Shown here: piece by piece, positions 27,777 through 39,013 of the stretch
How the letters are laid out: each line of letters starts with the position of its first letter
How positions within the stretch are numbered: position 1 is the first letter of the stretch
Source of the DNA: Candidatus Collierbacteria bacterium GW2011_GWB2_45_17
Lineage (GTDB): Bacteria; Patescibacteriota; Microgenomatia; UBA1400; MFAQ01
DNA length: 64,000 bases
Assembly (NCBI GenBank): GCA_001001485.1
Contig: LCKO01000002.1
Location: forward strand, 47,567 to 111,566
Direction of reading: 5' to 3'
Translations under genes and position numbers: made by a program
The notes under the pieces: model-generated
The model's input: only the letters and a program-made list of their open reading frames with translations
Told to the model about the DNA's origin: nothing
Database searches by the model: none

Positions 27777-28760
27777 ATGTCTTCCGATACCCTGATCATT
27801 GTTTCCTTCCTCGCCATCGGCCTGCTTTTAGTTTACCTTCTTCTCAAACAGAAGCTCGAAGCTCAGAAAACCGATCCGACTCTCAACGCTTGGCTCAAGT
27901 CCCTCCAGCAGTCTTTCGACACGACGAACCGTACCACCAACGCCTCTCTTCAGCAAAACTACCGCGAGCTCTTCGCCCGTCTCGATCAGGCTACCGCCGT
28001 CATTAGTGACCTCAAGAAAGAAGCCGGCGCCTTCGGCGAGGTCAGCCGCTCCATGAAAGATCTCCAAGATTACTTGAAGTCTCCCAAACTGAGGGGCAAC
28101 ATCGGTGAACAAGTCCTCAAAGACCTCATCGGCCAGATGTTCCCCAAAAATAGTTTTCATCTTCAATATCATTTTAAGGATGGCTCCATCGTCGATGCCG
28201 CCATCAAAACTCAAGCCGGCATCCTTCCGATCGACTCCAAGTTTCCCATGGAAAACTTCCAAAAAATCTACTCGGCAACTTCGGCTACCGACAAAGCCGC
28301 CGCTCGCAATGCCTTCATTCGCGATGTCAAAAAACACATCAAAGATATCTCCGGCAAGTACATTCTGCCGGAAGAAGGCACTCTCGACTTTGCACTTATG
28401 TACATTCCCTCAGAAACCATTTTTTACGAGATAGTCAACGAACAAGAGCTTATGGATCTGGCCCGCGACTCCCGTGTCTATCCTGTCTCGCCCACCACTC
28501 TCTATGCCCACCTTCAGACCATTCTTCTGTCTCTCGAAGGCCAGAAAATCGCCGGCAAAACCTCCGAAGTTTTTACTCTCCTAAGAGCCGTTCAAAAAGA
28601 CTACGAAAAGCTCAACGAAAACTTTGTTCTCATGGGTAAACACCTAACCAACGCCTACAACTCTTTAGGTAGTACCTCCCAAACCATGAACCAGATCGGC
28701 ACCAAGCTCGACTCCGCTCGCCAGCTCAAAACCGGCCTCCTAGAGGATACAGAGATATAA
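27777..28760 (+). CDS. rmuC: DNA recombination protein RmuC
   Basis: N-terminal TM, long coiled-coil, C-terminal RmuC block (ILPIDSKFP..LMYIPSETIFYEI). Confidence 0.8.
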   Translation: MSSDTLIIVSFLAIGLLLVYLLLKQKLEAQKTDPTLNAWLKSLQQSFDTTNRTTNASLQQNYRELFARLDQATAVISDLKKEAGAFGEVSRSMKDLQDYLKSPKLRGNIGEQVLKDLIGQMFPKNSFHLQYHFKDGSIVDAAIKTQAGILPIDSKFPMENFQKIYSATSATDKAAARNAFIRDVKKHIKDISGKYILPEEGTLDFALMYIPSETIFYEIVNEQELMDLARDSRVYPVSPTTLYAHLQTILLSLEGQKIAGKTSEVFTLLRAVQKDYEKLNENFVLMGKHLTNAYNSLGSTSQTMNQIGTKLDSARQLKTGLLEDTEI

Positions 28761-28769
28761 TATATAGAA

Positions 28770-29609
28770 ATGGTCAAAATACTATCAAAGGTTGAAGCAA
28801 TCAAATTATTGGGATTAGACGACAAAACATTTGAAAATTACTTCAAGAACGCAAGAGAATTTTTCTGTCTTCCTAGAAAAGGGAAAGAAAGATTTCGATT
28901 CGACGAGGACGAGTTAAAGCACTGGAAGAAGGACTTAATATGGCGTACTATAAATCTCAACTTTGAAGACTACGCCACTTGCCTAGATTTTGCTTTAGCT
29001 CAACATTTTCGAAAATATGTTGGTTCTGACTGGGGAACATCTAGACAAAGAGAATTTGGCCAAAAAATCACAAATTGGGTTAAGGGTCAATTGGGCGAAA
29101 TTGCCGTACAAAAATTTTTCAATAGGGAATTTGGAAAAGAAATTGAACTTGATTTCGATATTCACCCAAAGATAGTTCCCCAAGATATTATTGGAGTTTT
29201 AGAAAATCGTAAAATGAGAAAACCAAAAATAGGTGTTGGTATTAAATCTTCAAAACCAAAAAGTGCCTTTCTTGTTCTTGGAGACAAAGAGATTAAACTT
29301 AAGGAGAGGAGGTCGGATATCTATATTTATTGCCGACCAGATATCCCAGATGACCACCTTCTAAGATTGACAAAGGATTTGATCGTCAAAGCGGTAAAAG
29401 ACAAGCCACTATTCTCGAAATATAAGGACCTGCTTCCTGATTTTAATGATATTCCTTGTGAAGTAGTTGGTTGGTGTAGATACAAGGAGCTAGAAGAAGT
29501 ATCTTCCATTCCTGGGCAGGCTTTTGATAATGGAACAAGGTTTGTAAAAAAATCTGGTGAACTACACAAGAGTAAATCAGATTGGAAAAAACTTATCCAG
29601 CAACTATAG
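28770..29609 (+). CDS. Hypothetical protein; candidate restriction endonuclease partner of adjacent C5-MTase (by position only)
   Basis: Convergent with and 17-nt overlapping the 3' end of the m5C MTase gene; AT-rich by eye; no motif confidently recognised. Confidence 0.3.
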   Translation: MVKILSKVEAIKLLGLDDKTFENYFKNAREFFCLPRKGKERFRFDEDELKHWKKDLIWRTINLNFEDYATCLDFALAQHFRKYVGSDWGTSRQREFGQKITNWVKGQLGEIAVQKFFNREFGKEIELDFDIHPKIVPQDIIGVLENRKMRKPKIGVGIKSSKPKSAFLVLGDKEIKLKERRSDIYIYCRPDIPDDHLLRLTKDLIVKAVKDKPLFSKYKDLLPDFNDIPCEVVGWCRYKELEEVSSIPGQAFDNGTRFVKKSGELHKSKSDWKKLIQQL

Positions 29610-30876
29610 CTGGCTGAAAAACAAACATCTCTTCTTGATTCGATGAAACCTTTTCATTTTTACGTTTGTCTGTGATGTTCGCATAAACCCAATCATAATT
29701 TACCCCGGCAAATGTTTTTAATACTGCCTCCGAAATAATTTTAGCGGCTTTTGGCGGTACAGCCATTCCAATTTGTTTTCTTACGCTTTCTTTTGAACCT
29801 TCAAACACGAAATTGTCGGGAAAGGTTTGAATCCTTGCTCTTTCTCTGTTTGTTAAGGCTCTGTTTTCACTCCAATGATATCCGTGCGTTCCCCCACCTC
29901 CACTTCCAGTAATTGTATATGACGGTTTATCTTGGTGGAGCCTTTTATAGATTTGGCTTAATTTTGCCCCTTTTACATTCAGCTGTAGATATTTAGGAAT
30001 TGCTGAGTACCAAGCATTTTCACCTGGAGGTATATACTTTAATCTTTCTTCGACAATTTTTGATTGTGCGGTCATTTCGTTATTGGGAGCGTCTCTTTCA
30101 ATCGGAGGATTTTCTATGGCGTACTTAGCTGAAATATATTTGTTTGCGGATATGGGCGCTGGAACTCTAAATTCCAACCCCAAATCTTTTCTAATTCCTA
30201 TTATTACCACTCTGTGACGAGTTTGTGGTACCCCGTACTCTTCGAATTTATATTGATGTGCCGTAATTCTGTATCCTTCTCCAGCGTCTTCTAGATCCTC
30301 CAATATTTTTTCAAAGGCCCTACCACCATTGGCACTCTGCAGGCCACTAACATTTTCAGCCATAAACCACTTTGGATTATGTATATTTATGGCTTTGACA
30401 CCAAAGTTATACAAGGGGCCAAATTTTCCATTGAAGCCTTTTTGCTCGCCTACAACACTAAAATCATTGCATGGAAACCCAAAAGCCAAAACATCAAACG
30501 ACGGAACTTTTCTGAAATCAATTGTTTCGACCGGAGCACAAACTACTTTTGACATGTCACCGTGATGGATATTTTTTGCGTATGTTTTACACGTATTCTC
30601 ATCTATGTCATTCGCCCAAACAGGCTCAATTTCGTATATACTACCCGTTGAGTCAACAATCCTCGATGATTTTGCTCCAAAGGATAATCCTCCGGGGCCA
30701 CAAAATAGTTCAGCAAGTCTAAACTTTGTCGAATTGTTTTTTTGAATTCTATCAGCTTTCACAAGATTAAACATTCGTATAATATTTGGATATATATTAA
30801 GTAAAGCAGAATAGAAATCACGTGTCAAGCGGCACGCCGTTTGGCCAGCAGTGATTTTTGAATTCGCAAGTGGCAC
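29593..30876 (-). CDS. DNA (cytosine-5)-methyltransferase
   Basis: Motif I FCGPGG, motif IV GFPCNDFS, ENV motif FMAENVSGL; real start possibly internal Met (MFNLVK) removing overlap with upstream helicase. Confidence 0.85.
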   Translation of the reverse strand: MPLANSKITAGQTACRLTRDFYSALLNIYPNIIRMFNLVKADRIQKNNSTKFRLAELFCGPGGLSFGAKSSRIVDSTGSIYEIEPVWANDIDENTCKTYAKNIHHGDMSKVVCAPVETIDFRKVPSFDVLAFGFPCNDFSVVGEQKGFNGKFGPLYNFGVKAINIHNPKWFMAENVSGLQSANGGRAFEKILEDLEDAGEGYRITAHQYKFEEYGVPQTRHRVVIIGIRKDLGLEFRVPAPISANKYISAKYAIENPPIERDAPNNEMTAQSKIVEERLKYIPPGENAWYSAIPKYLQLNVKGAKLSQIYKRLHQDKPSYTITGSGGGGTHGYHWSENRALTNRERARIQTFPDNFVFEGSKESVRKQIGMAVPPKAAKIISEAVLKTFAGVNYDWVYANITDKRKNEKVSSNQEEMFVFQPAIVAG

Positions 30877-33800
30877 AGGTGGTGTAGACTGTAGTCCGGT
30901 CGAACTTTAGCTTCCGAATATCGGCCACCGAAGCTTTGATCACTTCTTTCAGCTCGCCCACTTCCTCCTCCGTGATATTAAAGTGTTCCCTTTTGAAAAC
31001 TCCTCCCTTATCCGGCTCGATAAAGTCGATCACTGACTGGACCACTTTGTATTTGAAGGATTTGTCCAAGTCAGCCAGTATGGTATAGAAAACCAGCTGA
31101 CGCTTGTAATCCCCATCGGAATTTTTGGTATTCCCCTCTATCTCATTCCTACTTTTGGGAGCCCCTGTCTTGTAGTCCGTAAATCGAACGTGTTTATCCT
31201 CCTTACTCGTCAGATCTATCCTATCCGCCTTTCCCGACAGGGGAATATCACCGAGCATTACTGAAGAAGATAGCGAGTCTCCAAATTTCTTCTCGGTAAA
31301 TAGACTCGGCTCAAACTCTTTCTCGTATCGATCATAGTATGCCGATAATATTTCTCTCCCGTGTTCCAATCGTGTCTTGTACTCTGCTTCCGTCAGCACT
31401 TCTCTCGCGAGAGCCACTTCAAAGTCCCGCAGGAAATCTTTTTTGGATTCCAGCTTCTCACCGTTATTCAGCCCCAAATATAGTCGTTCCAGAGCAAAGT
31501 GAACCGCTGTTCCAAAACACATGGGCGGTGCCTTCGCTCGCGGAATCTTGTAGAGGTTATCCAGCTTAAATTTATACGGACACTTGAGAAACGTATTTAA
31601 AGCCGTCGGGCTAAGCTTAAAGTCTTTGATGATTTGCAGTAGATACTCTTTCTCACCCTCGTGAATGGTCGGAGCTATTGGTACTTGCATTAGAGAGGCC
31701 AGAATCTTGGCCGCTTTTTTCTCCAGTCCTAACGTTTTAATTTTCTTTATTGTTTCTTTTGGCAGGTCTGAGAGAAACAGGGATGGATACACCATCTTTA
31801 CCGAAGAGCTGTACTTGGTAGAGCCTACTATATATAGCTCCTGCTTCGCCCGCGTCATGGCGACATAAAAAAGTCTTCGCTCCTCCGCATTCTTATCCTC
31901 CTTACTCACATCCTGCTCGTTGATGATTCCCGGTGGCAATTTGATCATCTGGCGCCTGCTGGTATTTCCCCAGTGAGTATCGGCGAAGCGATAAATGTAA
32001 ACCAGTTTCCACTCCAAGCCCTTGGCCTTGTGCGCCGTTGTCAGGGTTACGGCTTTGGTATCCGACACTAGTGTTTGCTCCGGCAGTTTCAGCCCGTTCT
32101 CTTCCATAATTCCAAGGTTAAAAACATAGCCAAAAATATCTAGACCAGAAGTTGCCGCCGCTTGTGCCTTAACATCTTCATAGAGAGTGCCAAAACGATT
32201 TAACTCGATGATCGGCTGGGGGAGAGCCAGAACATAATCAAGGAGCCCCGATTCTTGAAAAATAATCTGAAACATCTCCGGCAGAGTGTGAGAGGCCGAG
32301 CGCGAGTTCCACGACACCAGCAGATTAAACTTCTCTATCAATTCTCTATCAATCTCCGGATGAGCGTCTTGCAGGCTGTCCACCAACGTCTTTCTATTCT
32401 CGTGTGCATATCTGGCTGCTCTTAAAATAGGTAGTGGCTTGAGACCTAAATACGGATAATTCAAAATAGTAAAGAGGTCAATATCATCTACCGGACCCTG
32501 TAAACCGGTCACTACTTTGAGAATCTTCAGAAACTGGCCGACCAAAGGTGTTCTCAGCACATCCGTGCCCCCTTCCAAACGATACGGAATATTTTTTTGT
32601 TTGAAGATATTTATCAGATTATCGATATCTCTGTTTTCTTTGACGATGACCGCCATCTCTTCCGGCGGGATACCTTTCTTTATCTTTTGTTTTATCGACC
32701 GGCAAACAAATTCATCTTCCAGTACGGACGAGCTAAATTTGGCCGTCTTCACCAGCACGTCCCGATATTTCACTTTGGGGTTTAAGGGTGTTTCTCCCAT
32801 AAGGGCGGCGGAAGACTGCAGTAGACTCGGCGTCGAGCGGTAGTTATCTACCAGCTTGACCGAGGTGTGTCCCGGAAATCTTTTTTCAAAGGCCAACAAG
32901 TTTTCTTTACTGGCTCCCTGAAAACGGAAGATGGAATTATGAACGACAATGCCATTGGCTATAAAATTGTGAGAGGGGGTGACTTCGAGGTCAAAAACGG
33001 TTTTCACCTTGATTTCTTCAGTTCTGGAAATTATTTTTTCATATTTAATTTCAAACCCATTTAATACTGGTAAATAATTTCCTATGAGCAGGTTGCCCAT
33101 TTGCATGACTCTTGCAGATCTATGTTGAATTGAATTAGTTCCAATGCTTGACTTTATATCGATAAAGCCAGGCAACTCTCTTTCAAGGTTTTCTGCGATA
33201 CTGAACAATTGTTTTATATCTGTTGAGGTAATCCTAAAACCCTTGCCAATATTTTTGTTTTTCAATTTGAATCCTAATTTAGATAGCTTATCTAACACTT
33301 TTTTATTTGATGTTTGGATATTAATTTCGTGAAGAACCTCTGGGTGTTCAAGAAGACCGACCTTGGCATATTTAGTCCTGTAGCTTCTAGAGCACATCAT
33401 AAAGTTAATCTTCACCCTCCCTTTTCCAAGTGTGGTGGCCTCTCTTGAGTAGTGAGGCTCCATGAGATTTATTCCCAAATCATCGGCCAGTCTTTTTGCA
33501 TTCGAAAGTGTATCAAATTCTGCAAAAATTACCTTTATGTATTCCTGAGAAACTTTACCTCCTCGCGGTTGAAACACTATGGTAGGAATCTGATATTTTA
33601 GAGAATAGATTGTTTCTGCACAGCGAGCTTCCCATTCAGTATTATGTGAGGCGATTCCAACGATTTTATCTGCACCAGATTCCGTTTTAAGTCTAATCGA
33701 CAGACCCCTGGTAATTCCCAAACGCCAACCAACTCCTTCCTTGAACATCAGATAGTTGTACCAATAGCTGGTTTCTTCTCTCGGTGGAATGTAACAGAAC

Positions 33801-34906
33801 ATCTTGTGGTTATCGGTAGCGGTAACAGTTTTACCAGATTCTGTTGTTAGGGTGATTAGTCTTACCTTTTTGGTTTGGGAAAAAACGTTTGTAACCTTAA
33901 TGTATGAGGTATATCCTTTTCCGACGGCAGACAATACAGATTCCCCAATTTGTATATCCTTAATATTTTTTTCTCCTCCTGCTGTATTTATCTTCGTGTC
34001 GCCAGGAAGGCATTGATTGTTGTCTCCCACACAAAAAATATTTGACCTTTCTCCCCAGAAAGACGACAGAGCAAACACCAATCTATTTTGTGCCGAGTTC
34101 GTATCCTGATACTCGTCTACCAGAATGTACTGAAAATTTTCTTCGTATTGTTGTAAAAAATCCGCATCATTTTCAAACGCCTCTACCACCCAATTGATCA
34201 TGTCCTCGAAATCCAGTCTCCCCAATGCTTTTAATTTCTCCTGATATTTTTCGTAGATAAAAAGGAGATCAATATTCTTATTTACCAGCGTTTCCCTTTC
34301 GGTTCTCGCCGTCTTGCTCATTCCCCCTTTCTCTATCTCAAACTCGTCTTTGAGTATCGACACCAGCTCGGAAAACTTCTTCAAAGTAATTCCTTCTCTC
34401 TTGAGGATTGAGATACTGCCGATAATATCCTTGACATACATCAGGGGTGCATTGACGGGCTTCAAGAGTTTAAAAGAATTTTTTTCCAGAACTTCGGAAA
34501 TGAGATTGACTCTTTCCAGCTCTGTCACGTTCTGCATTCCCGCCGGCCTAGCAAACCTGTCCGGATTGTCGGCAATGATCTCATTACACAGTGCATGAAA
34601 GGTGCCGATCTTCACATAGTACCCGTCCTGACCGATAAGGCTGATGAGACGTTCCTTCATTTCTCTTGCCGCCGCATCGGTGTAGGTTAGGGCAAGAATT
34701 GAGGATGGTTCGGTATCGGTTTCTTTGAGAATATTGGCAATTCGTACCGTCAGTACTTGCGTTTTCCCGGTACCCGGACCGGCCAGCACCAGTACCGGCC
34801 CTTCGATACTATCGACGGCTTTTTTCTGAGTCGGATTTAATTTTCGATAAGCGGATTCAAAGGCAACCGTTACAGGCATGCCTAATTGTATATCGAAAAA
34901 AGTCAT
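30818..34906 (-). CDS. UvrD-family helicase fused to C-terminal PD-(D/E)XK / Cas4-like Fe-S nuclease, interrupted by an intein (1362 aa precursor)
   Basis: Walker A AGPGTGKT, motif II LVDEYQDTN, motif III split VGDNNQ|intein|SIFRFQGA; C-terminal Cys4 (C..CATCEFKNHC). Confidence 0.85.
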   Translation of the reverse strand: MTFFDIQLGMPVTVAFESAYRKLNPTQKKAVDSIEGPVLVLAGPGTGKTQVLTVRIANILKETDTEPSSILALTYTDAAAREMKERLISLIGQDGYYVKIGTFHALCNEIIADNPDRFARPAGMQNVTELERVNLISEVLEKNSFKLLKPVNAPLMYVKDIIGSISILKREGITLKKFSELVSILKDEFEIEKGGMSKTARTERETLVNKNIDLLFIYEKYQEKLKALGRLDFEDMINWVVEAFENDADFLQQYEENFQYILVDEYQDTNSAQNRLVFALSSFWGERSNIFCVGDNNQCLPGDTKINTAGGEKNIKDIQIGESVLSAVGKGYTSYIKVTNVFSQTKKVRLITLTTESGKTVTATDNHKMFCYIPPREETSYWYNYLMFKEGVGWRLGITRGLSIRLKTESGADKIVGIASHNTEWEARCAETIYSLKYQIPTIVFQPRGGKVSQEYIKVIFAEFDTLSNAKRLADDLGINLMEPHYSREATTLGKGRVKINFMMCSRSYRTKYAKVGLLEHPEVLHEINIQTSNKKVLDKLSKLGFKLKNKNIGKGFRITSTDIKQLFSIAENLERELPGFIDIKSSIGTNSIQHRSARVMQMGNLLIGNYLPVLNGFEIKYEKIISRTEEIKVKTVFDLEVTPSHNFIANGIVVHNSIFRFQGASKENLLAFEKRFPGHTSVKLVDNYRSTPSLLQSSAALMGETPLNPKVKYRDVLVKTAKFSSSVLEDEFVCRSIKQKIKKGIPPEEMAVIVKENRDIDNLINIFKQKNIPYRLEGGTDVLRTPLVGQFLKILKVVTGLQGPVDDIDLFTILNYPYLGLKPLPILRAARYAHENRKTLVDSLQDAHPEIDRELIEKFNLLVSWNSRSASHTLPEMFQIIFQESGLLDYVLALPQPIIELNRFGTLYEDVKAQAAATSGLDIFGYVFNLGIMEENGLKLPEQTLVSDTKAVTLTTAHKAKGLEWKLVYIYRFADTHWGNTSRRQMIKLPPGIINEQDVSKEDKNAEERRLFYVAMTRAKQELYIVGSTKYSSSVKMVYPSLFLSDLPKETIKKIKTLGLEKKAAKILASLMQVPIAPTIHEGEKEYLLQIIKDFKLSPTALNTFLKCPYKFKLDNLYKIPRAKAPPMCFGTAVHFALERLYLGLNNGEKLESKKDFLRDFEVALAREVLTEAEYKTRLEHGREILSAYYDRYEKEFEPSLFTEKKFGDSLSSSVMLGDIPLSGKADRIDLTSKEDKHVRFTDYKTGAPKSRNEIEGNTKNSDGDYKRQLVFYTILADLDKSFKYKVVQSVIDFIEPDKGGVFKREHFNITEEEVGELKEVIKASVADIRKLKFDRTTVYTTCATCEFKNHCWPNGVPLDT
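32936..34012 (-). mobile_element. Intein (359 aa) inserted in helicase motif III
   Basis: Starts CLPGDTKI right after VGDNNQ, block B TATDNH, ends NGIVVHN followed by S; excision restores VGDNNQSIFRFQGA. Confidence 0.8.
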
Positions 34907-34980: not shown

Positions 34981-36441
34981 GTGAAACAACAAGAACTAGG
35001 CGAATTACTGGAATATTTACTCTCACAACCAGGGGAATCTGAATGGATCGAATTCAAACATAATAATTATTCCCCAGATGATCTCGGAGAATATATCTCA
35101 GCCTTATCCAATTCAGCCTGTTTACTCGATAAACCGCGGAGCTATCTGATTTTCGGAATTGAAGACAAAACGAAAAAAGTTGTGGGAACAAATTTCAATC
35201 CAAATAAAGAAAAAGTAAGGAATCAAGAGTTATTGAATTGGCTGGATACTCAACTCCGTCCAAGCATACAGTTTACATTTAGCGTATTCTCAGAGCAAAA
35301 AACAGGATACCAAATTGTAATAATTGAAATTCACCCTGCCCCTGGTAGCCCAATTAAGTTCAAAACCGAAAGTTACATTAGAGTTGGAACATATAAAAAG
35401 AAATTAAGAGACCACGCGGGGTTAGAGAGAAGATTGTGGGAAAAATTGAACCGAAAAGATTTTGAATCACAATTAGCAACAGAGAACATTTCTTCAAGCG
35501 ACGTGCTCCGTATAATTGATTATCCAAGTTTCTTTGACATGTTAAATATACCCTTACCAGCAGACAGGGAGAGCATTCTATCTAAATTAGAAGAGGAGAG
35601 AATGATAGCTCGGAGAGGGAAATCATGCGATATTACAAATTTAGGAGCAATTCTATACGCCAAGAAACTAAGTTATTTCGAACATTTGGATAGAAAATCA
35701 ATTAGAGTAATAATATACAAAGGAGGAAACAGAAATGAATCAGCAAAGGAGCAAATTGGATTAAAGGGATATGCTACAGGCTTTGAGGGTCTTATAAGTT
35801 ATATTAACGATCAGATTCCTGCAAACGAACTAATTGGTCAGGCCATAAGAGTCAACACAAAAATGTATCCCGAGATTGCCATCAGGGAATTGGTTGCAAA
35901 CACATTGATTCACCAAGACCTTTCAATTAAAGGATCGTCCCCATTAATTGAAATATTCAACGATAGGATAGAATTCTCAAACCCAGGGAAACCCTTAATT
36001 GACACACTTCGTTTTCTAGATCATGCACCTCAAAGCAGAAATGAAAAAATCGCAAAAATGATGAGACGGGTTGGTATATGTGAAGAAAGAGGAAGTGGAA
36101 TTGACAAGGTTATTATCCAAACAGAACTCTATCAACTTCCTGCTCCAGAATTTGAAGTTGGAGATAGTTTCACAAGAGTAATTTTATTCGCTCATAAAAC
36201 ATTTTCGGAGATGGGGAAAAAGGATAGAATTCGTGCCGCATACCAACATTCATGTTTGAGATATGTTTCGAATCAACAAATGACAAACGAAAGTTTACGT
36301 AAGAGGTTCAATATTAGTGACAAGAATTATCCAATAGCCTCAAGAATTATTAACGAAGCTGTAGACGCTAAACTCGTAAAACCATTTGACCTTGAGTCAA
36401 AATCTAGGAAATACGCACGATATATACCTTTTTGGGCTTGA
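34981..36441 (+). CDS. AlbA_2 (divergent AAA / Schlafen-like DNA-binding) + HATPase_c_4 domain protein, RecG-C-terminal-like putative regulator
   Basis: N-term SEWIEFKHNNYSP..ISALSNSACLL..YLIFGIEDKTKKVVGT typical of AlbA_2; C-terminal HATPase_c_4-like region; AT-rich by eye. Confidence 0.6.
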   Translation: MKQQELGELLEYLLSQPGESEWIEFKHNNYSPDDLGEYISALSNSACLLDKPRSYLIFGIEDKTKKVVGTNFNPNKEKVRNQELLNWLDTQLRPSIQFTFSVFSEQKTGYQIVIIEIHPAPGSPIKFKTESYIRVGTYKKKLRDHAGLERRLWEKLNRKDFESQLATENISSSDVLRIIDYPSFFDMLNIPLPADRESILSKLEEERMIARRGKSCDITNLGAILYAKKLSYFEHLDRKSIRVIIYKGGNRNESAKEQIGLKGYATGFEGLISYINDQIPANELIGQAIRVNTKMYPEIAIRELVANTLIHQDLSIKGSSPLIEIFNDRIEFSNPGKPLIDTLRFLDHAPQSRNEKIAKMMRRVGICEERGSGIDKVIIQTELYQLPAPEFEVGDSFTRVILFAHKTFSEMGKKDRIRAAYQHSCLRYVSNQQMTNESLRKRFNISDKNYPIASRIINEAVDAKLVKPFDLESKSRKYARYIPFWA

Positions 36442-37028: not shown

Positions 37029-37943
37029 ATGCTGGAATTTGAAAGAAAGAAATTAATTGAAACCGAAATTTATGAAAAACCCCTACCTTTCTTTAACCCA
37101 GAGGTTTACGAAACTCACCTTGGTCTCTCTTATCTCCGGGAGCCAGGTGTCGCCATTATTTCCATTCCTTATGTCGATCTCAGAGGTGCGCAGGGTTTCT
37201 TAGATGGTTTTCCCCGAGAATTGGAATTTTTTAAGTATCTTGAAGACCCCACTCCCATCCCGTCTTCCGAAGCCCTCTGTAAGTTTGCCGGCCAACTTTG
37301 CTTTTTGAGTCATGGCCCTCAGCGGACTATGAACAAAGATGCTCAGAAATATTTTCAAAACATCAAAGAATCTGGTCATGGATCCGTCCTGGAACACGCC
37401 AACATTTCCATTCTGCTTTGGGGAGTTTCGCGGAGCCTCACTCACGAACTGGTCCGCCATCGGGCCGGTTTTGGTTTTTCTCAAGTTTCTCAGCGGTACG
37501 TCGGAGGTCGCACTCTTCGCTTCATCGAGCGACCGGAATATGTCGACGACGCTTTTCTCCATGAACTTTTTGAAGATCGAATTGAAAGGACTCAGCGAGA
37601 ATACGAAGGTATTACCGATTATTTACTGGAAAAACAAAAAGCCGGTTCTGAAATCCTCAGTGCCGACCGTAAAACCGATCTCCGTAAAAAAGTCCGCCAG
37701 GCGGCAAGGTCTCTCTTGCCCAATGAAACCGAAGCCCCGATCGTCGTCACCGGGAATGCCCGAGCCTGGAGACATTTTCTGAACATGCGGGGTAGTGAAC
37801 ATGCCGAAATCGAGATTCGTCGTGCCGCTTTCGAAACCTACCGCTGTCTCTCTCAAGTGGCTCCGCTTCTCTTCGAGGACTTCGGCGTGGCTCACTTGCC
37901 GGACGGCACCCACGGGCTCACCACCCACTTCCCCAAAGTTTAG
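37029..37943 (+). CDS. thyX: FAD-dependent thymidylate synthase ThyX
   Basis: ThyX signature HELVRHRAGFGFSQVSQRY (RHRx7-8S..SQRY). Confidence 0.85.
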   Translation: MLEFERKKLIETEIYEKPLPFFNPEVYETHLGLSYLREPGVAIISIPYVDLRGAQGFLDGFPRELEFFKYLEDPTPIPSSEALCKFAGQLCFLSHGPQRTMNKDAQKYFQNIKESGHGSVLEHANISILLWGVSRSLTHELVRHRAGFGFSQVSQRYVGGRTLRFIERPEYVDDAFLHELFEDRIERTQREYEGITDYLLEKQKAGSEILSADRKTDLRKKVRQAARSLLPNETEAPIVVTGNARAWRHFLNMRGSEHAEIEIRRAAFETYRCLSQVAPLLFEDFGVAHLPDGTHGLTTHFPKV

Positions 37944-39013
37944 CTCTTATTTCCAAACGCCGGGGAAACTGCAAAAGGAATTTCTTCCCAGTCCTTTGAT
38001 TTTCTTACCTTTAGGTTTTTCGCCCAAACCGCGTCCAGAATTTTGGTATCTACTCCCTTGCCCCTTGCCATAGCCCTCAGAGCCAGCAGATCTTTCGGGA
38101 AACACTTCCCTCCAAATCCCTTCAGGGTGGTAATGTCCAAGTGACCGTCAAGAATTCTTTTATCCGCCACCACCATTTTCTTCACCTCTTCGTACTTTAT
38201 CCCCAGCTTTTCACAAATCTCCGCCATCTCATTGGCAAAAATAACTTTAGTCGCCAGAAAACAGTTGGCCATGTACTTCACCATCTCGGCCGAAGTCGGA
38301 TCTGTTTGGTATATCGGGGCCAGCGGTAGCACCGCCTGGTACATCGCCGACACTCTTCGGGATACCTGATCGTTGCTCGCTCCTATTACAATCCTGTCCG
38401 CATTGACAAAGTCTTGTAGAAATGAAGCTTCCCTCAGAAACTCGGGGTTAAAACAAAACAAACTCTCCGGATACTTCCTGATGTAGCCCGCCGTCGTTCC
38501 AGGAACTACTGTCGACTTGATAATGATGATTTTATCGGTACCCTTAGTCAGTTTAGCCAGGATCTTCATATTTTCATCCATAATCGATAGATCTATTCCC
38601 GACTCGTCTTCCCTAATGGGGGTTGGTAAGCAAACGAAAATATAATCGGACTTATCTACCACCTCTGCTAAAGACTCAAAATCTTTATATTTATCGTAAA
38701 CATGGATCTCGTGATTGGAAAAGCCATACTCCACCGCCTGCCCCACAAAGCCGTAGCCAATAATCCCAATTCGGAACTTTCTCTTAGTACTAAAATTTCC
38801 GCTTTGAATCACCGGCATCACCCCTCTGGCACCACCACTGTTTTGCTGTAATCTTCCCTTATCAATCAAAGTTTTTACATACTGGTGAATGGTGGGGACG
38901 CTTCTTTTAAACTTCTTGGCAATTTCCTCCAAGGTTGGCGAAAACTGATTTGCTTGATAATATTCTTCGATGAAATCAAGAATCTGCTTTTGTTTGGGGG
39001 TTATACCTAACAT
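37940..39013 (-). CDS. Fusion of LexA-type winged-HTH DNA-binding domain with UDP-glucose/GDP-mannose dehydrogenase-family NAD-binding and central domains (no obvious C-terminal UDP-binding domain)
   Basis: N-term LGITPKQKQILDFIEEYYQANQFSPTLEEIAKKF..TIHQYVKTLIDKG resembles LexA N-domain; then Rossmann IGIIGYGFVGQA and UDPG-DH central-domain-like region. Confidence 0.55.
   Translation of the reverse strand: MLGITPKQKQILDFIEEYYQANQFSPTLEEIAKKFKRSVPTIHQYVKTLIDKGRLQQNSGGARGVMPVIQSGNFSTKRKFRIGIIGYGFVGQAVEYGFSNHEIHVYDKYKDFESLAEVVDKSDYIFVCLPTPIREDESGIDLSIMDENMKILAKLTKGTDKIIIIKSTVVPGTTAGYIRKYPESLFCFNPEFLREASFLQDFVNADRIVIGASNDQVSRRVSAMYQAVLPLAPIYQTDPTSAEMVKYMANCFLATKVIFANEMAEICEKLGIKYEEVKKMVVADKRILDGHLDITTLKGFGGKCFPKDLLALRAMARGKGVDTKILDAVWAKNLKVRKSKDWEEIPFAVSPAFGNKS

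Follow-up and report, generated by a model that had tools for sequence, protein, structure and literature searches.

The window analyzed here is the whole stretch of 64,000 nucleotides taken from contig LCKO01000002.1 of Candidatus Collierbacteria bacterium GW2011_GWB2_45_17. On its minus strand lies a gene for a helicase-nuclease whose reading frame is interrupted, inside motif III of the helicase, by an intein of 359 amino acids (aa), and it is this intein, with the domain nested in it, that is described below. The parts of the gene were as follows, with the evidence that delimits each in parentheses:

30818..34906, minus strand: host gene, precursor of 1,362 aa (open reading frame [ORF] listing with Pfam and NCBIfam matches)
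34013..34906, minus strand: N-extein, aa 1-298, ending ...FCVGDNNQ, the first half of motif III (PF00580 match ends at the junction)
32936..34012, minus strand: intein, 359 aa, gene codons 299-657 (translation and intein profiles)
34010-34012, minus strand: Cys1 codon of the intein (intein block A)
33788..34012, minus strand: N-terminal part of the Hint splicing domain, intein aa 1-75, blocks A and B (TIGR01445 over aa 1-72; gp41-1 alignment over aa 5-70)
33563..33775, minus strand: GIY-YIG-like putative nuclease unit, intein aa 80-150 (conservation, AlphaFold2 [AF2] model, and Pfam, PHROG, Foldseek, and T4 tests)
33113..33562, minus strand: two-helix linker and alpha/beta domain, intein aa 151-300 (AF2 secondary structure)
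32936..33112, minus strand: C-terminal part of the Hint splicing domain, intein aa 301-359, blocks F and G, ending ...VFDLEVTPSHNFIANGIVVHN (TIGR01443; DnaB and gp41-1 inteins)
32936-32938, minus strand: Asn359 codon, in the terminal His358-Asn359 (intein C-terminus)
30818..32935, minus strand: C-extein, starting with Ser+1 (codon 32933-32935), with SIFRFQGA as the second half of motif III (translation, Pfam, and NCBIfam)
30848-31618, minus strand: PD-(D/E)XK nuclease, aa 1097-1353, inside the C-extein together with UvrD_C (Pfam)

According to Pfam and NCBIfam, the host combines in one polypeptide a UvrD/PcrA-type superfamily 1 (SF1) helicase and, toward the C-terminus, a PD-(D/E)XK nuclease whose cysteine motif is Cas4/AddB-like. 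The Pfam matches were UvrD-helicase PF00580 (E value, 7.7e-62), UvrD_C PF13361 (2.7e-32), and, in the C-terminal region, PDDEXK_1 (4.3e-27), where the cysteines follow the pattern C...CxxCx5C; Walker A reads GPGTGKT. The first-pass annotation, made from the letters of the sequence, had named the host a UvrD-helicase/Cas4-like nuclease. Pfam confirmed both halves of that name as UvrD plus PDDEXK_1, and since Cas4 models matched the nuclease with scores below their cut-offs only, the label "Cas4-like" appears fair but loose. The NCBIfam models pcrA, uvrD, and addA gave partial matches far below their cut-offs, and by these scores the helicase is no equivalog of PcrA, UvrD, or AddA. The listed start of the gene is the ATG at 34906 (MTFFDIQLGMPVTV...). 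Because the homologues P0003 and P0004 begin at the Met of MPVTV, the true start is probably Met10, at 34879.

Positions 32936 to 34012 were translated without a stop codon, giving CLPGDTKI...TATDNH...NGIVVHN with VGDNNQ immediately before and SIFRFQGA immediately after, so that the 359-aa intein proposed in the first-pass annotation at codons 299 to 657 of the 1,362-aa gene, as well as the three intein blocks it named, was found exactly in place. The intein profiles all matched above their cut-offs, in keeping with the blocks read by eye: Intein_splicing PF14890 at an E value of 4.2e-16 and 59.6 bits (gathering cut-off, 35.8), the N-terminal model TIGR01445 at 37.8 bits (cut-off, 24.5), and the C-terminal model TIGR01443 at 28.4 bits (cut-off, 15.6). 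Among PDB sequences, the gp41-1 and DnaB inteins were matched at E values of 2e-7 to 1e-6, with both intein ends aligned. Across 119 parsed inteins of the family described below, the residue at position 1, the nucleophile Cys1 of CLPGDTKI in the window, was Cys in 117; the His of the block B motif TxxH (T66-D-N-H69, within TATDNH at aa 64 to 69) was invariant (119/119), as were H358 and N359 of the terminal NGIVVHN; and the +1 residue, Ser in the window, was S, C, or T. The PF00580 match to the host halts at residue 299, at profile position 251, and NF008743 (DNA helicase II) takes up the match again from residue 657, also at profile position 251. Therefore, removal of the insert restores the helicase, and the earlier expectation that it would recreate motif III is borne out: after splicing in silico, the motif reads VGDNNQSIFRFQGA, against a consensus of GDxxQSIYxFRGA. 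Taken together, these features make it practically certain that the segment is a class-1 intein.

To follow the distribution of the insert, the spliced 1,003-aa extein was used as the query and its best 120 homologues were compared. The insert was absent in 114 of these, each of about 1,000 aa, and present in six, namely, P0003, which is the window's own sequence, and five others; it is thus no constant domain of this helicase. Since the homologues included proteins labeled Candidatus Collierbacteria by their sources, the genome is of the candidate phyla radiation (CPR)/Patescibacteria kind. The closest intein-less orthologue, P0004, was 94% identical at the aa level and reads ...VGDPNQSIFRFQGA... 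without interruption. Its locus, L004, lies on a 681-kb contig and shares its neighbors with the window, with an upstream 128-aa ORF, ThyX, and a LexA-domain/UDP-glucose-dehydrogenase gene and with RmuC downstream. Over the extein DNA the two loci were 86.7% identical, and the DNA of L004 was continuous exactly at the predicted intein junction (...GATCCGAACCAG/TCTATCTTCCGT..., also given as ...GGGGATCCGAACCAG/TCTATCTTCCGTTTCCAGGGAGCC...). An intein-less allele, which the first-pass annotation had suggested looking for, is therefore available from a syntenic locus.

The five other Collierbacteria-type alleles carried a 359-aa intein at the same site as the window copy, in exteins 54 to 67% identical to the window protein by BLAST and 56 to 68% by global alignment. 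Their inteins were 66 to 78% identical and always above their exteins, with intein/extein identities between insert-bearing alleles of 78/68, 76/61, 76/61.5, and 66/56%. In the window, the GC content of the intein was 37.9%, versus 45.6% for the exteins, and the GC content at third codon positions (GC3) was 35.7%, versus 52.5%, so that the AT-rich region noticed by eye was real. Farther afield, a scan of GTDB species genomes with a single-protein query returned full-length intein homologues of 40 to 47% identity at the same site in several Patescibacteria, Rokubacteria, and Gammaproteobacteria metagenome-assembled genomes (MAGs). At these loci (L005 to L016), those in Gammaproteobacteria MAGs included, intein GC equaled flank GC, with values of 27 to 44% in Patescibacteria and about 70% in Rokubacteria. 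In contrast, the window intein lies 8 GC points (17 points for GC3) below its host, which suggests a comparatively recent arrival in this genome. Because presence was sporadic, the intein was better conserved than its host, and its composition was foreign, the locus has the expected signs of a mobile intein, though no proof of current activity; selection, instead of a recent transfer, could also account for an intein that is better conserved than its extein.

Between the two parts of the Hint domain lie about 230 aa (intein residues ~76 to 305), an endonuclease-sized domain. The first-pass annotation had judged the middle ~250 aa large enough for a homing endonuclease and had seen no obvious LAGLIDADG; its size and its GIY-YIG-like appearance agree with the first statement, and the second held as well. 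In the window copy, the domain had no meaningful match in Pfam, NCBIfam, or PHROGs, and a family profile of it searched against PDB sequences returned chance matches only (e.g., EDS1, E value of 0.08). A LAGLIDADG endonuclease was rejected since no LAGLIDADG family was found at E values of ≤1 in the window intein or in the middle domains of 35 relatives, and an HNH endonuclease was rejected in the same way, with no HNH family matched at that threshold in the window copy and none in the 35 middle domains.

A word-indexed search with the intein retrieved two proteins only, and the family emerged when 1.84 billion representative proteins (clusters at 50% identity) were searched exhaustively with phmmer; 294 were matched at E values of ≤1e-3 and 60 at ≤1e-10. 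The nine phmmer matches that were scanned were UvrD-like helicases or fragments with Hint signatures flanking the match. Junctions were parsed in 119 proteins, drawn from the 150 matches listed plus the Collierbacteria-type alleles. All 119 were UvrD-like proteins in which D-x-x-Q is followed by the Cys of the intein and the terminal H-N is followed by [S/C/T]-[ILVM] (usually I)-[Y/F]-x-[F/W]-R-G-A, and the inteins were mostly 340 to 370 aa long. The middle domain is therefore part of a large family of inteins that keep to a single target, motif III of the helicase. Two members, P0176 and P0214, are UvrD-like helicases with two inteins each, one of the LAGLIDADG type near the P-loop, matching LAGLIDADG_3 and Hom_end, and one of the GIY-YIG-like type at motif III.

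Phage proteins with the middle domain were present in BFVD. One of these, A0A8S5TZY8 (782 aa), bears the annotation of adenine-specific DNA methyltransferase, and in it about 124 residues of the model were matched with a root mean square deviation (rmsd) of 2.4 Å and 27% identity; judging from this structural match, the middle domain, or part of it, may also occur outside helicases. Five stand-alone proteins of about 350 to 380 aa (P0152, P0154, P0199, P0218, and P0271) had Hint-like ends and the same middle domain, with neither Cys1 nor the terminal His-Asn; they may be derivatives of this intein that stand alone and no longer splice, or else fragments produced by gene calling.

The middle domain was modeled with AF2 from an alignment of 35 sequences (model residue n = intein residue n + 73), with a predicted local distance difference test score (pLDDT) of 88 and a predicted template modeling score of 0.81; from the single intein sequence, the pLDDT was 32. 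The model begins with an N-terminal unit of the order beta-beta-alpha-beta-alpha (strand 84 to 91, strand 95 to 101, helix 104 to 110, strand 116 to 123, and helix 126 to 140), followed by two helices within 156 to 179 and an alpha/beta domain at about 200 to 301. Over the 119 inteins, invariant or nearly invariant residues fell almost wholly within the N-terminal unit. Y87 (x-Y-L-M; 118/119) lies in strand 1 at the position of the "GIY" Tyr. The strand 2 motif is G95-[WYF]-R97-[ILV]-G99-x-T, with an invariant Gly, an aromatic residue, and an extra invariant Arg, and reads W96-R97-L98-G99 in the window copy. R107 (119/119) lies in helix 1, where E111 is also among the conserved residues, and E133 (118/119) lies in the helix after strand 3. 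The residues Y87, M89, R97, G99, R107, and E133 are thus invariant or nearly so, and all of them are kept in the window copy. The C-terminal half retained a conserved DT, a PH, R199, and H228.

The N-terminal unit was also the most conserved segment of the intein, with a mean pairwise identity of 76.6% among five Collierbacteria-type inteins and 41% between the window and distant members; the corresponding values were 67.9 and 34% for the N-terminal part of Hint and 75.9 and 34% for its C-terminal part. The window copy keeps all of the invariant residues, and such conservation speaks against an endonuclease in decay.

In the AF2 model, the conserved residues of the unit correspond in their order, their spacing, and their place on the strands and helices to the elements GIY, YIG, Arg, and Glu as these are defined for GIY-YIG nucleases (PMC1564403). 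Four independent lines, each of them weak, converged on the same assignment. First, the N-terminal units of 102 relatives were scanned singly against Pfam, and GIY-YIG PF01541 was matched by 14 of them (best E value of 0.002, with none shown to reach the gathering cut-off), T5orf172 by two, and MUG113 by one, while the next most frequent family was matched by four; the first three families presumably make up a single Pfam clan. Second, the PHROGs matched most often by the relatives were phrog_1111 (best E value of 2.1e-5, for one relative) and phrog_314, which scans of authentic T4 proteins identified as the family of endonuclease II and that of I-TevI, I-TevII, and Seg, respectively; endonuclease II is a named member of the GIY-YIG group (PMC1564403). 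Third, a Foldseek search of BFVD returned three true homologues and then mostly entries annotated as "group I intron endonuclease," "GIY-YIG nuclease," "MUG113," and "UvrC," with probabilities of up to 0.99.

Fourth, a hidden Markov model (HMM) of the unit was ranked against the 286 ORFs of phage T4, nine of which are GIY-YIG enzymes. SegE was placed first, I-TevII second, and endonuclease II (EndoII) fifth, and the hypergeometric probability of at least three GIY-YIG ORFs in the top five was ~2e-4. The alignments were in register, over strand 3 and the Glu helix and over YIGKT...R. For SegE and I-TevII, the HMM alignment set E133 against their ...EEA..YE(E) helix. EndoII aligned with family members over VIYAI...VYIGKTKNLRKR, the strand 2 motif falling on its VYIGKT and R107 on the Arg of its NLRKR. 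A word-indexed search with the I-TevI catalytic domain gave nine near-identical proteins only and no broad GIY-YIG profile.

Several observations weigh against this assignment. The BFVD matches to GIY-YIG entries had E values of only 0.01 to 0.15, and the window copy itself had no Pfam GIY-YIG match. When the family profile was compared by hhalign with I-TevI, with EndoII, and with a 12-sequence alignment of T4 Seg and I-Tev proteins, nothing significant was found, the sole local pieces being in register. Foldseek against the PDB also gave nothing significant (best E value of 0.2), and its nominal top matches were LAGLIDADG enzymes with an rmsd of about 17 Å. The second motif is noncanonical, with [WYF]-R-x-G instead of Y-I-G, and no conserved Asn corresponding to that of GIY-YIG enzymes was found after E133 in the family alignment, where the segment reads Y-G-I-P-T..F. 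The alpha/beta domain (aa 151 to 300) had no significant fold or sequence match. On balance, the middle domain is probably a GIY-YIG-like nuclease.

A genuine intein might nonetheless house a middle domain that is no nuclease but serves in DNA binding, as a structural element, or in regulation and that persists by vertical descent or through conditional splicing that regulates the helicase. It would fit this explanation that the window copy has no significant match to any nuclease model, that inteins in ATPase motifs have been proposed as posttranslational regulators (PMC4760082), and that intein GC equals flank GC in the other genomes, which suggests long residence. However, the putative catalytic residues are invariant over the 119 inteins, which are divergent and represent several phyla, and they are kept in the window copy, and the unit that carries them is the best-conserved part of the intein. 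Relatives match verified GIY-YIG nuclease families, and the intein is sporadic among close relatives and foreign in base composition in the window genome. A non-nuclease domain thus appears unlikely.

It is less probable still, and distinctly so, that the domain is a homing endonuclease of another or new catalytic type, for instance with its active site in the C-terminal alpha/beta domain, or as a LAGLIDADG-like saddle, the resemblance to GIY-YIG enzymes being convergent or noncatalytic. Although the PDB entries at the top of the Foldseek list were LAGLIDADG enzymes of the I-OnuI type and the DNA-binding domain of MotA, those matches were nonsignificant, with E values of ≥0.2, template modeling scores of ~0.2, and an rmsd of ~17 Å, and none of the 35 full middle domains matched a LAGLIDADG or HNH profile. 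The failed profile-profile tests against T4 GIY-YIG enzymes and the conserved His and Arg of the C-terminal half (PH, R199, and H228) also speak for such an enzyme, but the invariant residues cluster in the N-terminal unit at GIY-YIG positions, which is where the four lines of comparison point as well. Finally, the idea that the helicase merely has a lineage-specific insertion domain, one that is not removed, has nothing in its favor beyond the segment being in frame and was rejected as extremely improbable, since all intein blocks are present above curated cut-offs, the catalytic motif III is split by the insert, and 114 of the 120 closest homologues, including the syntenic orthologue at 94% identity, do without it.

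The locus is best explained, and likely so, by a class-1 intein that is mobile and carries a divergent homing endonuclease of the GIY-YIG type, for which we infer splicing, nuclease activity, GIY-YIG chemistry, and homing. The 1,362-aa precursor would be translated with motif III split between Gln and Ser and would presumably be inactive as a helicase. The splicing chemistry of class-1 inteins is well established, and applied here, it would have the Hint domain excise itself by an N-S acyl shift at Cys1, transesterification to Ser+1, cyclization of Asn359 assisted by His358, and an O-N shift, with T66xxH69 of block B belonging, like Cys1, H358-N359, and Ser+1, to the class-1 splicing residues. 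The products would be a 1,003-aa helicase-nuclease with an intact motif III, VGDNNQ being joined to SIFRFQGA, and the free 359-aa intein.

The domain nested in the Hint fold would then act as a site-specific homing endonuclease, with Y87, R97-x-G99, R107, E111, and E133 forming the catalytic unit, which would lead through the two-helix linker to the alpha/beta domain in a bipartite layout like that of I-TevI. It is from the analogy with such bipartite GIY-YIG homing enzymes that the C-terminal alpha/beta domain is presumed to be a DNA-recognition module. Either the released intein or the precursor would recognize the uninterrupted coding sequence of motif III and cut the intein-less allele at or near it, and recombinational repair from the intein-bearing allele would copy the intein in. 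That homing is active at present is somewhat favored.

In its splicing domain, the window intein is like the canonical bifunctional class-1 inteins, such as PI-SceI, the RecA intein of M. tuberculosis (PI-MtuI), and the DnaB inteins, with which it shares Hint, Cys1, TxxH, the terminal HN, and a +1 nucleophile, as well as an endonuclease-sized domain between blocks B and F. It also shares with them a place in a conserved ATPase motif of a DNA repair or replication protein and a sporadic occurrence with intein-less alleles. Unlike in those inteins, the nested domain lacks a LAGLIDADG or HNH signature and a Pfam model, and its conserved core looks like GIY-YIG. With I-TevI, I-TevII, SegA to SegG, and T4 endonuclease II, the domain shares the order and spacing of Tyr, x-x-Gly, Arg (~10 residues on), and Glu, and with the GIY-YIG homing enzymes it also shares an N-terminal catalytic unit, a linker, and a separate DNA-binding part, the catalytic and DNA-binding roles being putative here. 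It differs from them in having [WYF]-R-x-G for Y-I-G, in the lack of a conserved Asn in the family, and in being embedded in an intein, whereas those enzymes are intron-borne (phage group I) or free-standing. I-TevI has a His four residues after the Arg, where the window family has Glu. Unlike in GIY-YIG homing enzymes, no NUMOD or zinc-finger DNA-binding module was detected in the window domain, and its similarity to these enzymes is below the Pfam gathering threshold and below hhalign significance.

Intein-borne homing endonucleases have been described as LAGLIDADG or, more rarely, HNH enzymes. Of GIY-YIG enzymes, two papers state that none had been found in inteins (PMC1564403, 2006; PMC2677866, 2009), and a 2025 preprint, with reference to those earlier papers, counts GIY-YIG among the "intein-associated" endonucleases. 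A related arrangement on record is that of "fractured genes," in which split inteins have a free-standing GIY-YIG or Vsr-like endonuclease gene between their halves (Dassa et al. 2009, PMC2677866) and which was proposed as a route by which inteins gain new endonuclease domains (PMC2677866). Both there and in the window, intein halves are combined with a GIY-YIG-type endonuclease in DNA metabolism genes; in contrast, the window gene is contiguous, with the endonuclease fused in frame inside the Hint domain. As to the host, the published UvrD/PcrA inteins occur in the same family of SF1 UvrD/PcrA/Rep helicases, and because 16 of them were already counted in bacteria (Novikova et al. 2016, PMC4760082), the mere presence of an intein in UvrD is no novelty. 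As an intein the element is ordinary, and it is the class of its endonuclease and the size of the uncatalogued family that are notable. According to one review (PMC5874633), helicase inteins sit in the P-loop, whereas the window intein lies at motif III; in P0176 and P0214, the P-loop inteins are of the LAGLIDADG type and the motif III intein has the new domain. A full-text search of incomplete coverage, such that an earlier description is possible, found no paper on a contiguous intein with a GIY-YIG domain or on CPR inteins.

The DNA around the helicase gene, part of which is absent from the intein-less locus, has the following features:

27777-28760: RmuC, downstream of the helicase and also present in L004
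within 28770-30876, plus strand: ORF of 279 aa between RmuC and the helicase, no Pfam match
29593-30876, minus strand: C5 cytosine DNA methyltransferase (PF00145, E value of 5e-71)
34981-36441, plus strand: ORF of 486 aa with Schlafen/AlbA_2 and HATPase_c_4, ~36% GC, directly upstream of the helicase
37940-39013, minus strand: ORF of 357 aa, whose L004 counterpart joins UDP-glucose/GDP-mannose dehydrogenase domains to a LexA DNA-binding domain

The 279-aa ORF and the C5 methyltransferase are both absent from the syntenic locus L004, and the methylase ORF overlaps the 3' end of the helicase gene by 59 nucleotides; the segment 28770-30876 is probably an inserted restriction-modification cassette. 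The Schlafen/AlbA_2 and HATPase_c_4 ORF is likewise absent at the matching position in L004, and 34981-36441 is likely a second insertion flanking the helicase gene. The fusion of LexA with UDP-glucose/GDP-mannose dehydrogenase domains is unusual; the domains were read in the L004 counterpart of the ORF at 37940-39013.

For the organism, the split of motif III after Gln means that the repair helicase-nuclease presumably depends on splicing, which matters in a small CPR genome. For the family, about 300 protein clusters carry a 230-aa domain without a family model in Pfam or NCBIfam, and there is an even chance that they make up a large undescribed class of contiguous inteins with a GIY-YIG-type endonuclease and a novel-fold DNA-recognition domain, dedicated to the motif III of UvrD-like helicases and spread across distant bacterial phyla and phages. 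If the reading given here is true, this would be the first GIY-YIG endonuclease family inside inteins and a third catalytic class for intein mobility, beyond LAGLIDADG and HNH. It would also represent what the fractured-gene model of endonuclease acquisition predicts as the "fused" end state, a concrete example of an intein capturing a free-standing endonuclease, and would provide for engineering an enzyme that is compact and whose natural target, the coding sequence of motif III, is long and conserved.

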